Below are positions 8,521 to 62,354 of a stretch of 64,000 nucleotides of DNA, in pieces. The notes under the pieces were generated by a model, which was not told the DNA's origin, made no database searches, and was given only the letters and a program-made list of their open reading frames with translations. Source of the DNA: Candidatus Hermodarchaeota archaeon (GTDB taxonomy: Archaea; Asgardarchaeota; Hermodarchaeia; Hermodarchaeales; Hermodarchaeaceae); contig JAEOTO010000032.1 of assembly GCA_016839805.1 (NCBI GenBank), positions 202,564 to 266,563 on the forward strand, given 5' to 3'. A program made the translations under genes and the position numbers. The first letter of the stretch is position 1, and the number at the start of each line of letters is the position of its first letter.

Positions 8521-10278
8521 TTAAAAACTATTTTTCCTCCTTTTTTTTGACTTAATTTTTGGTAGTGTATTCTCTGTCCATACCCATTTTTTTGCATCAA
8601 AATCATAGTACTTTGGTTGAATTGGTGATTCAAAACCTGTCATTGCCTGCCAAGTAGGTTTCACTTGAAATGCTACATTGATTTCCTGGTTTGAAAAGAT
8701 TTTTTGTAATGTTGATAGAACATCAACAGCATTATGATTCGGGACATAAAGGAAAACATAACCATTACCATTTTCAAGAATTACTCCACTAATATTAGGA
8801 AGTATATGAAGCGATTGAAGTACTTGTATAGTTATTTCTCGTGGTTCGAAAATGTAAATTTGGATTACTGTGTCCAAGCCCACGTGGTAAAGAATCAATC
8901 CTTGTAGTTTGCTTACGTTGTTTTTTTCTAATTTCTTTATTTGTCTCCTAAATTTCATATGAGCTGAATCTGCAAGACCTGCGTAACGGGCTTCAAGTGA
9001 TGGTTGTGCTGCTACTCGATCTGTGCTGAGAATAATTCTGTGATCTCGTCTAAAATATATGAAATCCTCAGGATTCAATTGAACAGGGAATTTCTGAGTG
9101 CTCTGTAATAAGTTGTAGGAAAATTCCAGTGAATACGTTTTTGGTATTTCTTCAACTGGTATCTCTTCTGATAAAATTGTACGAGATTTTTCGAGAATAA
9201 CCGAAAAGTCTTGGGGCCATCCAATTTCGGGTATATATGAACTAAGATTCCAGTTGTTAATAATCTCAGAGCTTCGTACGTTCATTAATATTGAGATCTT
9301 CTCTTGAACCACGAGGTCTTCTAACCAATCGTTAAAGGTCATTCTTTGGTTGTTTGGGATAAGTACTCTACAATGAAGTAGGTTATCCTGAATGAGGTTA
9401 ATTAACCAGGTGTAACAAATTTCAGAAAAGAAAGATGAAATCTGCTGGCATTTCTTTTGGCTTGGTATCTGTAGAATTACCTCATGGGGAGTTAATCCGA
9501 TTAATGGTAAGTTGATAAAGTGATATAAGCGAAGTAGATGTCTTTGAGCAAGTTTATTCAACGCTTGACTAAGAGCAGAAGGGGTCATTTGAAGTTGTTT
9601 AGCAAGTTTGCTTTGATGGAGGGTAGTTATGTGTTTCAGCGTCAAAAGGATACGTAGCTCACTACTCGTAAGAGGGGTATGGGTCTCAAGCATCCACCGT
9701 TCAAGGGCGGCAGTATAGGTTGATGTGGCGAGGGGAGTGCCGGTGCTTGTGGGACGAATAGTGTTAAGCCAGTGGAGGGCGCGGTGGAGAAAGCTGCCGG
9801 CAACAACTTGATCGAAGAGGGGGAAGCCTAAGGGCGCGTCGTATATGTAGTGCTGGTAGTGTTGGGGTGGGGACACCTGCTTCCAGATCTTGGTAAACGC
9901 CTTATATTCAGATTCGGTATAGTTGCCGTAACGGAGACCAGCGTAGAGGCCAAGGTCAGCCGCTTCGGGGATGTGACGTAGGTGAGGTAGAAGAAGGCTT
10001 AGGAGGGCTTCCCGCCAAAGCACCCAATCTAAGACATGGGAGTCAGCATCTTTGAGGTCCCGGGCGAGGGCAACGTACCAACCGCCGCGTAGTTGGTTCG
10101 CAAGTTGTGTTTCAAGAGCGCCAAAGCGTGGGCGATCATAGATTAACGGGTTGTCACCCCATACGAGGTAAAGAATACGGTCTTGCTTCCGGAATAAGGA
10201 ATCCATAATGAGCTCGGTGGCTAATTGATCCTGTTTACGATGGAACCTTTGCATCAGCTCACGCGACCTCGATGACAA
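8521..10278 (-). CDS. Uncharacterised 585-aa protein with internal MarR-like wHTH (paralogue A)
   Basis: Long clean ORF. wHTH segment LAKQLQMTPSALSQALNKLAQRHLLRL. Colinear similarity over its full length to the ORF at 10635-12365. Confidence 0.85.
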   Translation of the reverse strand: MSSRSRELMQRFHRKQDQLATELIMDSLFRKQDRILYLVWGDNPLIYDRPRFGALETQLANQLRGGWYVALARDLKDADSHVLDWVLWREALLSLLLPHLRHIPEAADLGLYAGLRYGNYTESEYKAFTKIWKQVSPPQHYQHYIYDAPLGFPLFDQVVAGSFLHRALHWLNTIRPTSTGTPLATSTYTAALERWMLETHTPLTSSELRILLTLKHITTLHQSKLAKQLQMTPSALSQALNKLAQRHLLRLYHFINLPLIGLTPHEVILQIPSQKKCQQISSFFSEICYTWLINLIQDNLLHCRVLIPNNQRMTFNDWLEDLVVQEKISILMNVRSSEIINNWNLSSYIPEIGWPQDFSVILEKSRTILSEEIPVEEIPKTYSLEFSYNLLQSTQKFPVQLNPEDFIYFRRDHRIILSTDRVAAQPSLEARYAGLADSAHMKFRRQIKKLEKNNVSKLQGLILYHVGLDTVIQIYIFEPREITIQVLQSLHILPNISGVILENGNGYVFLYVPNHNAVDVLSTLQKIFSNQEINVAFQVKPTWQAMTGFESPIQPKYYDFDAKKWVWTENTLPKIKSKKRRKNSF

Positions 10279-10349
10279 TATTTAGCCATCCAACCACACG
10301 ATGACTATACAAGGGATTCAGGTTAATTTTACCTTCCGATTATCCTTGA

Positions 10350-10393
10350 AGTATCAATAAATAAAAGAAAGGAAGGAAACCATCGAGGTTTCC
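10350..10393 (-). terminator. Hairpin plus oligo-T: candidate terminator of paralogue B
   Basis: Perfect 7-bp stem GGAAACC/GGTTTCC (10375-10393). On the minus strand it is followed by TTCCTTTCTTTTATTTATT. Lies between the stop of B and the start of A. Confidence 0.35.
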
Positions 10394-10634
10394 TTTTAGT
10401 AAGTACTAAGTAGGAATCGATGTATGTCCCTTTTTATTTCCTAAATATCATGAGGGTCAGGACGACGAGGGGGCCACATTGTTTTGATGCCTCCGAGGGT
10501 TATCTACTCTTCATTTCATGTAAGTTTCCCTTTAAAGACCGAAAATTATTTGCAAAAAGTAGGATGGATTTTTTTTCTAAATGGACTTTTTGTGTAATAA
10601 TCTGGTTATTGGTTGTTACATTCATGAATAATTA

Positions 10635-12365
10635 TCAGGTGCGAGGTAGTGGCAAGGTATCTTTTGTCCATATCCACATGTTTTTTCCAAAGTCGTAGTT
10701 AACAGAATCTATAGTATATGGTCCCGTCCATCCATAAGCTTCCCACGCAGGTCTAATTGCTGTAACGGCCGGAATTTCAAGGGCAGTGAGTAATTCGTTT
10801 AAGGAGATTTGTAGATATACAGCGGACTCAGAAGGTACAAGAAGTGTAGCAACACCAGCTCCATCATCGAATATTCTTCCTGCAACGTGTGGAAACAGTT
10901 GACACGCAGTGAAGATTAGGCGAGTTTCCTCTATTGATGATTCAAGGTATAGATAGAGAGCAGTATTTAAGCCAATATTTAACAACCCAAGTCCGAGTGG
11001 TGGGCTAATTACTTCATTTTTTTCAAGATATTTGACACGTCGACGATAAGCCATGTGTTCAGATTCTTTATATCCAGCCTGCCTCAACTCATGGGACTCA
11101 AAAAACTTCATGTGCTCAGTAGCGAGATAAGCATCAGATGCTCTTTGCATGAAAAAGAAATCTTGTTGTTTAATCTCGATGCTTTTTTTCGAATGAGAGG
11201 AAGCCAGCTTGTAAAAGTTAATGGGTGGTAAATGTGGAATCCATTCTTCTGATATTAATCTCGAAAAATTGTCAAATATTGATTCGATTTCAAGGGACCA
11301 GCCATCCTTTTGGGGGTCGTACAGATTAAAGTTTCGAGCGTGCATTCTTTCTGAAATCATTCGTAGTTCCGGTGAGCTAAGACCATAACTTGAAGACACT
11401 TGTTTAAGCCATTGGCGGAATCGTGTCATTCGTTCTGTTGGAATTAAGAATGAAGCTAAAAGCTGATTATTGAATTCTTGAATTGCAAGTGCATAACGAA
11501 TTCTAGAGATTATTTGCGTCAGGGAATTTTTAATTCTCATATTCGAAGTAGAAAATTTGACTGTGATTGGTTGAAGACCAAGTATCGGATAATTTTCGAA
11601 GATAACAAACCGTAAAAGGTGTTTTTCTGCAAGTCTTTTAATTACTTGACTTATTGTTGGCTGGCGGATGTTGAGTTTATCAGCTAATTCGATCTGTGAA
11701 CAGGTAAGACAATTGTTAATGCCCTTTAGGATTTTAAGTTCTATTGGTCGTAAAATTCTGTGATAGTTGAACATCCAGCGTTCGAGATTCTCAGCATAAG
11801 TCTGTGTGGTCATCTTCGTTGATAGTTGAAAGAATGGTTTGAACCATAGTTTGGTCTTCTGGAGAAAGGTACCATCTACAAGTTTATCGAAAAACGGAAA
11901 CCCTGCTGTGGGAAAATAGCGGTAAAAGGTATATTCTATAGGTGGTGATGTAATTTCCCAGATTTGGAGAAACCAGTGTCGCTGCTTCTTGGTTCTGAGT
12001 GCATAGCGGGAGTAGCAATATAGACCGAGATCAGAGGCTTCTTTTACAGAGCGTACTATTTTGGGTATGTGGAGTAGATAGGCTTCACGCCATAATACCG
12101 CATTAAGAAGATTCCTACGTTCAGTAAGCAATTCTTCCGATAATTCCAAAGTTAATTGATTGTTGGTGCTTGTTTCGTTAGCACCGAAGCGTGGTCCGGT
12201 GAGTTCGATTGGGTTTTGGATCCAGCGAATAGTAGTATACGTGTCGAGGGATTCGGTACCAATAATCTGTTGTAATTGTCGTGCGATTTCATTAAAACGA
12301 TGCAAAGCTTCTGTCTTTCGTTGCTTAAGGATTTCATCTGAAATTTTAGAAGGATTTGTATTCAT
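10635..12365 (-). CDS. Uncharacterised 576-aa protein with internal MarR-like wHTH (paralogue B)
   Basis: Long clean ORF. wHTH LADKLNIRQPTISQVIKRLAEKHLLRF. Shares conserved blocks with paralogue A (listed in findings). Confidence 0.85.
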   Translation of the reverse strand: MNTNPSKISDEILKQRKTEALHRFNEIARQLQQIIGTESLDTYTTIRWIQNPIELTGPRFGANETSTNNQLTLELSEELLTERRNLLNAVLWREAYLLHIPKIVRSVKEASDLGLYCYSRYALRTKKQRHWFLQIWEITSPPIEYTFYRYFPTAGFPFFDKLVDGTFLQKTKLWFKPFFQLSTKMTTQTYAENLERWMFNYHRILRPIELKILKGINNCLTCSQIELADKLNIRQPTISQVIKRLAEKHLLRFVIFENYPILGLQPITVKFSTSNMRIKNSLTQIISRIRYALAIQEFNNQLLASFLIPTERMTRFRQWLKQVSSSYGLSSPELRMISERMHARNFNLYDPQKDGWSLEIESIFDNFSRLISEEWIPHLPPINFYKLASSHSKKSIEIKQQDFFFMQRASDAYLATEHMKFFESHELRQAGYKESEHMAYRRRVKYLEKNEVISPPLGLGLLNIGLNTALYLYLESSIEETRLIFTACQLFPHVAGRIFDDGAGVATLLVPSESAVYLQISLNELLTALEIPAVTAIRPAWEAYGWTGPYTIDSVNYDFGKNMWIWTKDTLPLPRT

Positions 12366-12486
12366 TGTGAGAGTTCCCGTGGTTTTCCCTAGACTAGTCT
12401 ATTCATGAATATGACATCTTAATAGTCTTAGGAAGAATAAGTGATTGAAGGTGTGGAGTTTTTCTATTCTATAGTCTTGAGATGAA

Positions 12487-12660
12487 TGGCGCGACTGCTT
12501 GGTCGTAGTCCGGGTGGCTGAGCGGTGTACAATCTGTGGGGTGGTTGGATGCCTCGCAACAATAATCGATTGCACATCTCCCCTCGTTGGATCCGACTGC
12601 CGATTGAGGGTCCGGAATCGTGCCGGGGGTACAATACGGTAGTCGGAGCACGGCCACTAC
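12487..12660. ncRNA. GC-rich structured-RNA candidate of unknown class (strand unresolved)
   Basis: About 175 nt. A 60-nt line inside it counts 62% GC, against an AT-rich flank. Two homologous modules lie 102 nt apart, and there is a long near-perfect hairpin at 12592-12652. It sits in the tRNA cluster. Confidence 0.4.
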
Positions 12661-12710
12661 GTTAGCCAATTTTTATCAGAAATTGCTAACAGTTCAAATA
12701 GCAGAAGAAG

Positions 12711-12830
12711 TGGTAGCGGGGGGTTGATTTGAACAACCGATCTCGGGGTTTCCCAAGGGGATTTATGAGCCCCGCGGGATATCAGGTCTCGGTGAGGAAC
12801 ACCAAGATATCCTGGCTACCCCACCCCGCT
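12711..12830 (-). tRNA. Initiator tRNA-Met(CAT) with two introns (D loop and anticodon loop); CCA encoded
   Basis: Minus strand: AGCGGGG-TG-GGGTAGCCAGG[..~28 nt..]ATCCC-G-CGGGG-CTCATA[~14 nt]A-CCCCG-AGATC-GGTTG-TTCAAAT-CAACC-CCCCGCT-A-CCA. A1:U72 and three G-C pairs next to the anticodon loop are initiator hallmarks. Confidence 0.8.
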
Positions 12831-12938
12831 TCCGAAGATAATGGGAATCGTTAGAGAAGAGCCGGCGTTATTGATTTAAGCTTTGTGCCTTGAAGAAGAT
12901 AAGCAACCGGTTCGCTTTGAGTGATGGAGAAGAAGTAG

Positions 12939-62217: not shown

Positions 62218-62354
62218 TGGCGGGCTCGGCGGGACTTGAACCCGCGACCCTCGGGTGTCTTTAGAAGACTGCTAGAAGCTCTTCTCTAAAAGCCCGATGC
62301 TCTGACCTTACCCACGCCGGAAACCCGGTACGTGTCTGGCTAAGCTACGAGCCC
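62218..62354 (-). tRNA. tRNA-Lys(TTT) with two introns (29 nt in D loop, 30 nt at 37/38); CCA encoded
   Basis: GGGCTCG-TA-GCTTAGCCAG[ACACGTACCGGGTTTCCGGCGTGGGTAAG]GTCAGAGC-A-TCGGG-CTTTTA[GAGAAGAGCTTCTAGCAGTCTTCTAAAGAC]A-CCCGA-GGGTC-GCGGG-TTCAAGT-CCCGC-CGAGCCC-G-CCA. Confidence 0.85.

Follow-up and report, generated by a model that had tools for sequence, protein, structure and literature searches.

The window, by which is meant the whole 64,000-nt stretch of the Hermodarchaeota genome (G000) that was analysed, contains at 12487-12661 on the plus strand a G+C-rich element of about 175 nt that is bordered by a divergent regulator gene and by a convergent initiator tRNA-Met gene (Table 1). The element and the regulator gene lie back to back across a spacer of ~120 nt with two conserved promoter motifs, and the 3' end of the initiator tRNA is 30-55 nt from that of the element. 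An earlier note, made by inspection of the sequence, had drawn attention to the composition of this region, and its count of 37 G or C residues in the 60 positions from 12601 to 12660 was obtained again both by script and by reading; the element as a whole has a G+C content of 59% (104/175), compared to 42% for the window and 33-39% for the flanks.

Table 1. Positions in the window of the RNA gene's structural elements, its signals and its neighbours.
Feature	Position	Strand	Remarks
Double-Lrp/MarR-type wHTH regulator, 576 aa, divergent from RNA gene	10635..12365	-	Pfam MarR match
Regulator's own conserved promoter motif CTTAATAGT.TT	12418-12432	-	Invariant even in RNA-less loci
Candidate promoter box GTGGAGTTTTTCTA	12453-12466, T-rich TATA-like part to about 12474 (12453..12474)	+	Invariant in 6 aligned loci
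5' hairpin GCGACU / GGUCGU, 6 bp, 4-nt loop	12491..12506	+	Helix 1, 91.7% paired
UCCGG, largely single-stranded	12509..12513	+	Within block UCCGGGUGGCU, invariant in 15/15 sequences
Closing helix P1, 5' strand GGUGGCUG-A-GC	12513..12523	+	Pairs with 12648-12658
Arm A, 13-bp helix (12524-12537 with 12565-12578)	12524..12578	+	Helix 3
Short arm UCC / GGA, 3 bp, variable 7-8-nt loop	12579..12591	+	Helix 5
Arm B (module B hairpin of the earlier note)	12593..12646	+	Helices 6 and 7
Closing helix P1, 3' strand GC-A-CGGCCACU (consensus GC-A-CRGCCAC)	12648..12658	+	Helix 2
T5 run, probable terminator	12670..12674	+	T4-T8 runs in relatives
Initiator tRNA-Met gene, convergent	12714..12832	-	Read by eye and by ARAGORN with introns

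The same note had described two modules within the element, and the pattern GACTGC-n10-TCCGG-n13-GTACAAT does occur exactly at 12493 and again at 12595, whilst GTTGGAT is present at 12544 as reported, with its second copy at 12586 rather than one base further on at 12587. An internal duplication, which had been read from these matches, is nevertheless unsupported, since the two modules (A and B) are identical at only 24 of 41 positions, a level of similarity equalled by 6 of 300 shuffles, since GTACAAT is not conserved in relatives in module A or in module B, and since the modules have differing structural roles, module A covering four different structural elements and module B being a single hairpin. 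The 66-aa open reading frame with a TTG start that occupies 12469-12669 on the minus strand had been dismissed as spurious, and it is indeed broken in relatives. No reading frame is conserved and the element is taken to be non-coding because homologues are separated by 1- and 2-nt indels.

Homologues were found in 12 of the 19 species genomes of the class Hermodarchaeia and on three metagenome contigs (L040, L041 and L044), the latter being reached by using the neighbouring protein as an anchor, and the resulting alignment contains 15 sequences of which 14 are distinct. Within the genus BLAST matched the element in 10 of 15 genomes with 74-91% identity, which is far beyond chance for the element as a whole given that the flanks are barely alignable, and a covariance model built from the sequences of this first genus gave full-length matches in two of the four genomes of a sister genus. 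Covariance-model matches scored 102-176 bits and spanned model positions 1-172, although the E-values of custom models such as these are rough. The element is single-copy in its own genome, and in both genera each RNA-bearing genome has one copy, at the same site. In G001 one contig ends with a full copy and another begins with a partial one, beside the regulator gene (G001:C76:8204-8373 and G001:C47:12-94), and these probably represent a single locus split by the assembly, or two strains, and no true second copy. A second covariance model yielded nothing credible in 381 further Asgard genomes, the one match (E=0.38) being noise, and there was no match to the RNA at a more distant orthologous locus (L038) or in viral and phage collections, where a single pattern match in IMG/VR was a chance match due to high G+C. 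On the evidence of these searches the family is confined to Hermodarchaeia, a class of the Asgard archaea.

RNAalifold and the model alignment agree on a fold in which a 5' hairpin and the sequence UCCGG are followed by a closing helix (P1) of 11 layers and a nearly linker-free four-way junction that carries two long arms and one short one. Over 48 pairs, 94.3% of the cells are standard pairs, and when the 3' partners were slid by 1-3 columns as a control the figure fell to 36-47%. Double-sided changes were observed in 13 pairs, compared to a mean of 5.7 in shuffles and with none of 500 shuffles equalling the observed number, but covariation measures of this kind are inflated by phylogeny as there are only 14 distinct, related sequences. 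The strand, which the earlier note had left open, is fixed as plus because G-U wobbles, which account for 128 of 670 cells, can pair on that strand only, so that pairing is 94.3% on the plus strand and 76.7% on the reverse complement. Taken by itself, the window's copy has a fold energy no more than modestly better than that of shuffles (z = -2.3), and the structural case rests on the comparative evidence. One feature expected of a structured non-coding RNA gene, namely a conserved and strand-specific secondary structure with compensatory changes, is present here.

The individual helices differ in how they are maintained. The 5' hairpin is kept in the sister genus and in L040 with a different sequence. 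The last G of UCCGG opens the closing helix, and a column scan of the alignment found no consistent pairing partner for UCCGG; an all-against-all scan of columns for pseudoknots and tertiary contacts returned candidates on invariant bases only, such as UCCGG with UUGGA. In P1 96% of cells are paired, with alternation of U-A and U-G and of G-U and G-C. Arm A shows changes on both sides in 8 of its 13 pairs, and its distal part is ACAAUC/GAUUGU in the first genus and UGUGUG/CACACG in the second, while its G/U-rich tip (12538-12564) bears the conserved sequence UGGUUGGAUGCCUCG. The pairs of the short arm are nearly invariant and give little evidence either way. Arm B is the long hairpin that the earlier note had placed at 12592-12652; it is present in the ViennaRNA prediction and is preserved by compensatory changes in relatives. 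Its lower stem has 10 bp (12593-12602 with 12637-12646) and is extended by a further 4 bp containing one bulge, the extension reading GAUU/AAUC in the majority of homologues but AAUC/GAUU in G014. Above this are an internal loop (GAGGG / GGGUAYA) that is G-rich and conserved and an apical stem of 5 bp (12611-12615 with 12623-12627), which is UCCGG/CCGGG here and CCCAG/CUGGG in the sister genus, and four pairs of arm B show double changes. Between the genera, compensatory swaps are seen in the arm B stem (two pairs), in the apical stem (one pair) and in the distal half of arm A. In one species (G011) the tip of arm A is kept and the internal loop of arm B has been replaced by a very different one, and that loop may not be essential. 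The strictly conserved positions cluster in the junction and UCCGG and in one terminal and one internal loop, and both the sequence and this specific fold are under purifying selection. A resemblance was also noticed between the tip of arm A (GCUGGUUGGAUGCCUCG, window 12538-12556) and the conserved 5' end of the class's own 23S rRNA (CUUGGUGGAUGACUUGGCU, L049:2820-2840, in G006), at ~12 of 14 positions. As evidence for a fragment or mimic of the 23S 5' end this was rejected and judged to be chance, given that UGGUUGGAUGCCUCG and UGGUGGAUGACUUGG agree at only about 12 of 14 nt, that the likeness is weaker in the sister genus and that there is no match to an LSU model, though the tip could in principle mimic rRNA for a ribosomal protein.

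Conservation of the element begins abruptly at 12487, with the T-rich part of the candidate promoter box centred about 25-28 nt upstream of this first conserved base, a spacing that fits an archaeal TATA box. TTTATTA is found at the same distance upstream in the sister genus. Termination at oligo-T is established in archaea, and in those homologues whose 3' flank was read the T-runs are situated 3-12 nt past the closing helix. It is inferred that the gene would be transcribed from its own promoter, GTGGAGTTTTTCTA, and would end at the T-run. The T5 run of the window is part of the 5' arm of a hairpin at about 12662-12693, located between the RNA gene and the initiator tRNA gene that converges on it, and the inverted repeat that forms this hairpin, GTTAGCCAATTT...AAATTGCTAAC, may act as a terminator in both directions. 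Among public runs, the window's own sequence occurred in no RNA-seq run and that of a relative in one metatranscriptome (X23), a run chosen for containing these words, in which a 310-nt contig is 92% identical to the relative's RNA gene. The same run includes a contig that continues into the promoter and another in a nearby coding gene, all at a depth of 3-4, and these data accordingly fit carry-over of DNA as well as they fit expression.

The RNA gene always lies between the initiator tRNA and the divergent double-Lrp regulator, whose orthologues occupy the same relative position in both genera with amino acid identities of 60% (G008) and 41% (sister genus) and whose family is confined to this lineage; the initiator tRNA was present in all seven RNA-bearing loci with an ARAGORN tRNA call and was recognised by reading in the sister genus. 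Comparison of the window (8521-12832) with G008 (L025, L059, L079) revealed that the block consisting of the initiator tRNA, the RNA, regulator B and regulator A is inverted as a unit relative to a MoxR-VWA pair, and thus the tRNA, the RNA and the pair of double-Lrp regulator genes have stayed together through at least one inversion. The six-frame match to the paralogue, regulator A (G000:C22:211120-212847, window 8557-10284), contains one in-frame TAA, while the listing of open reading frames gives an open 585-aa frame from a TTG start, and the six-frame match may simply begin before the true start codon.

Five species of the genus (G002, G005, G006, G007 and G009) have kept the regulator and have no RNA, even with the filters of the model search switched off, and the initiator tRNA is retained nearby in four of them; two metagenome contigs (L042, L043) likewise carry the regulator without the RNA. 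In G015 and G018 the locus itself is missing. These loci align to the others with a clean gap of ~170 nt, in which the promoter motif of the regulator is intact whereas the promoter box of the RNA, GTGGAGTTTTTCTA, is degenerate and decaying. The regulator tree, with an RNA-bearing sister genus and early-branching RNA-bearing species, indicates that the RNA was ancestral and was subsequently lost on one to three occasions, and its clean deletion from some lineages implies that it is dispensable. The RNA was hence ancestral to the class and is under selection where present, yet is non-essential. There was no link between the presence of the RNA and introns in the initiator tRNA, which is intronless in most RNA-bearing genomes.

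The tRNA genes of this genome are themselves unusual. The initiator tRNA-Met of the window has A1:U72, a GGG/CCC anticodon stem and a CAU anticodon, and is interrupted twice, by about 28 nt in the D-arm region and by 14 nt at 37/38, with the result that plain ARAGORN and Rfam miss it; in most relatives it is intronless and 78 nt long and in L038 it has introns at other positions. At 62218-62295 on the minus strand ARAGORN calls a tRNA-Pyl (CUA), a doubtful assignment as the sequence resembles the 3' portion of a tRNA that is longer and bears an intron, and immediately adjacent on the opposite strand the intron mode of ARAGORN calls a different, probably spurious, tRNA-Leu. For the genome as a whole that mode made only 34 tRNA calls, of which several are spurious (one is a 'SeC' with an intron of 1193 nt), and Asp, Phe, Lys and Pro are without a call. 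It is probable that many tRNA genes of this lineage contain introns of a non-canonical kind, or else that they fall within the 13% of the genome that is missing.

The earlier note had called the element a structured RNA of unknown class and had proposed a search with Rfam covariance models and an analysis of covariation among homologues as checks. The second of these supported a structured RNA, as described above, and the first found no match on the element with Rfam 15, either at gathering thresholds over the whole window or at E<=10 over 12350-12900, so that after testing the RNA is conserved, structured and non-coding and matches no described class. A suspected kinship with the CR-I region of RNase P RNA was not borne out. 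Apart from the absence of an Rfam match, there is no CR-V-like 3' strand, and a canonical archaeal RNase P RNA (RF00373, 173 bits) is encoded at G000:C22:267787-268163, 53 kb away on the same contig; the same model matches all 15 genomes of the genus, 14 of them over the cut-off. SRP RNA and 5S rRNA are accounted for elsewhere on the contig, at C22:42590-42929 (RF01857, 110 bits) and C22:30311-30429 (RF00001, 77 bits, with matches in 17 of the 19 genomes of the class), and neither model matches the element. When aligned locally to the RNase P, SRP and 5S genes of its own genome, the element did no better than shuffles. A C/D box sRNA was rejected as the 5' motif is UGAC or UGGC, where a C box would be RUGAUGA, CUGA has become CUAA, CUAC or CUGU in several homologues (it is lost in 4 of 13 sequences of the first genus's type, including G012, G014/L041 and L040, and in the sister genus) and there is no K-turn. 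An H/ACA sRNA was rejected as the ACA is ACG in 6 of 15 homologues, that of the window included, and is absent from the sister genus, as the distance from the pocket of arm B to the box is about 22 nt versus 14-16 nt in H/ACA RNAs, and as there are no tandem GA/AG pairs and no K-turn or K-loop. A Y RNA or YrlA was rejected as the TROVE domain (PF05731) was found in none of the 19 genomes of the class, controls from D. radiodurans and B. thetaiotaomicron being positive.

It is thus very likely that the element is a genuine structured non-coding RNA gene of a family not described so far. The explanation put forward here, which taken as a whole is considered probable on balance, is that it is a stand-alone gene for a structured RNA of ~175 nt, belonging to a new Hermodarchaeia family, which serves as an accessory RNA under the control of the adjacent regulator. 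In such a scheme the regulator would set the expression of the RNA through the shared control region of 120 nt and the RNA would act in trans as an accessory factor, its rigid junction and conserved loops binding a protein or small ligand so that it might function as a scaffold, decoy or sensor. The conserved junction and loops in a rigid fold, the lack of complementarity to other loci beyond chance and the fact that the gene can be lost together suggest an accessory RNA with recognition by shape, which is favoured over a housekeeping RNA or a seed-pairing sRNA; the balance between binding of a protein or ligand and base-pairing as the mode of action is put at about even. Control by the regulator is suggested by the back-to-back promoters shared with a regulator of the amino-acid-sensor type. 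This link is more tentative, a possibility that falls short of being probable, as it relies on analogy and on synteny within a single class, in which little time has passed for gene order to erode, and the regulator gene persists where the RNA has been lost.

One group of alternatives consists of RNAs with another mode of action. If the four-way junction formed two coaxial stacks side by side, the conserved tip of arm A might be pressed onto the conserved internal loop of arm B to make the active or binding site of a self-cleaving ribozyme or orphan aptamer, and a near-linkerless junction is an architecture common to the hairpin ribozyme and several riboswitch aptamers; here it is combined with strict conservation of the junction itself and of one terminal and one internal loop. 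Such a reading is nonetheless regarded as unlikely given that no Rfam ribozyme or riboswitch family matches, that the scan of columns found no covarying tertiary pairing and that G011 retains the tip yet has replaced the internal loop. A riboswitch acting in cis was rejected, since downstream on the plus strand there is the T-run and then tRNA genes of opposite strand, with no same-strand gene to be switched. Comparable doubt attaches to a base-pairing sRNA like GcvB or SgrS, under the adjacent regulator, that would use either the G/U-rich tip UGGUUGGAUG or UCCGG to bind the leaders of mRNAs. The divergent arrangement of sRNA and regulator is that of oxyS/oxyR, gcvB/gcvA and sgrS/sgrR and the G/U-rich loop is conserved and unpaired, but the longest complementary matches genome-wide were of 14 nt, as at random, with no target beyond chance, the tip has a different sequence in L040 and in the sister genus, and typical sRNAs of the seed type are far less structured and less centred on a junction than this RNA.

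A second group of alternatives concerns the origin of the element. It could derive from a tRNA, either as a class II tRNA gene that has been remodelled or as a decoy resembling a tRNA and recognised by tRNA-binding enzymes, and would have kept a 5' part similar to an acceptor/D arm (UCCGGG-UG-GCUGAGCGGU) and, in GGUUGGAUGCC, a likeness to a T loop; the sequence does resemble the 5' ends of tRNA-Ser/Leu and a T loop, it is located in a tRNA cluster, and the tRNAs of this genome carry odd introns that standard tools miss. This is distinctly unlikely, however, as ARAGORN found no intron-bearing or split tRNA when every segment of 8-150 nt was deleted in turn and both strands were searched, whether or not an additional intron in the anticodon loop was allowed, whereas hundreds of variants in the same scan gave the control, the two-intron initiator tRNA next to the element. 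The Rfam tRNA and tRNA-Sec models also failed to match at E<=10 in 12350-12900, a test that is weak alone because the initiator tRNA there was missed as well. Furthermore there is no 3' acceptor strand, the T-loop-like motif has no stem and its equivalent of A58 is lost in the sister genus, and the likeness to a class II tRNA D arm remarked on in the earlier note dissolves in the fold, where GGCTGAGCGGT and the tRNA-like GGCUGAGCGGU are base-paired within the closing helix and arm A and there is no D loop. It is very improbable that the element is a domesticated or decaying piece of a mobile element (a guide-RNA scaffold of TnpB/IscB type, an intron or a MITE), for which its location at the 3' flank of a tRNA gene and its presence/absence polymorphism with sharp edges might be cited. 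Set against these are its single copy per genome at a constant site in two genera, the lack of an adjacent nuclease, recombinase or RT gene, the neighbours being a regulator and tRNA genes, the lack of any visible target-site duplication and its absence from the viral and phage collections. There is also no room for a guide, which in RNAs of the TnpB/IscB type is a variable stretch of 16-20 nt at one end of the scaffold, the T-run following 3-12 nt after the fold and the 5' end starting at a hairpin, and no similarity was found between the element and the two TnpB tails of this genome.

A more ambitious version of the accessory-RNA explanation would make the RNA the effector or sensor arm of a Hermodarchaeia-specific module with the adjacent pair of double-Lrp regulators, and a new class of compact four-way-junction RNA that binds a metabolite, perhaps an amino acid, or a protein, or is catalytic. 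It is thought rather unlikely, but if true this would be the first complex-folded orphan RNA class described for Asgard archaea, which are the closest known prokaryotic relatives of eukaryotes. To our knowledge work on non-coding RNAs in Asgard archaea covers only universal RNAs, expansion segments of rRNA and tRNA introns, and a literature search on the non-coding RNAs of Asgard archaea or Hermodarchaeia returned almost nothing and none that was relevant to the element. The significance of the RNA is limited by its confinement to one class, by its dispensability there and by there being nothing that links it to eukaryote-like machinery. Even so, a well-supported new RNA family with a defined fold, gene boundaries and a candidate promoter can be added to RNA family libraries for future annotation, and sister species without the gene are natural deletion "knock-outs" that allow comparison of its presence and absence. 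It is also a tractable test case, as an RNA of 175 nt can be transcribed and probed in vitro and a candidate regulator is encoded next door.

Comparison with known systems reveals both likenesses and differences. The GUCCGGG of the element follows a hairpin as CR-I follows P3 in RNase P RNA, but it has no CR-V partner and the canonical RNA is encoded separately. Arm B has an internal "pocket" like that of an H/ACA sRNA, and CUGA and UGA(C) motifs reminiscent of C/D sRNAs occur near P1 in the window, whereas the boxes are not conserved, the spacing of about 22 nt is at odds with H/ACA RNAs and neither K-turn nor K-loop is present. With class II tRNA and YrlA/Y RNA the element shares a local resemblance to the acceptor/D arm and T loop, a closing helix near both ends and a four-way junction; it differs in having no cloverleaf, T stem or 3' acceptor strand, and in belonging to a class without a Ro/TROVE protein. 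A further parallel is offered by the bacterial pairs sgrS/sgrR and gcvB/gcvA, in which the regulator controls the divergently paired sRNA gene, and by oxyS/oxyR, since here too an RNA gene of ~175 nt is back to back with a regulator gene and the arrangement has been kept in two genera. The regulator in this case is nevertheless a lineage-specific double-Lrp protein of 576 aa, no pairing of seed and target was found, and regulation is a matter of inference from synteny. The orphan bacterial non-coding RNAs (the raiA motif, OLE, ROOL/GOLLD and HEARO) have no similarity to the element in sequence or Rfam model, the element being archaeal, smaller than OLE, ROOL and GOLLD and, unlike HEARO, without a link to genes of mobile elements. 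In character it resembles them, each being a stand-alone and relatively G+C-rich gene for an RNA with a multi-helix junction supported by covariation, with conserved loops and junction, a narrow phyletic range and a function that is not to be deduced from sequence.
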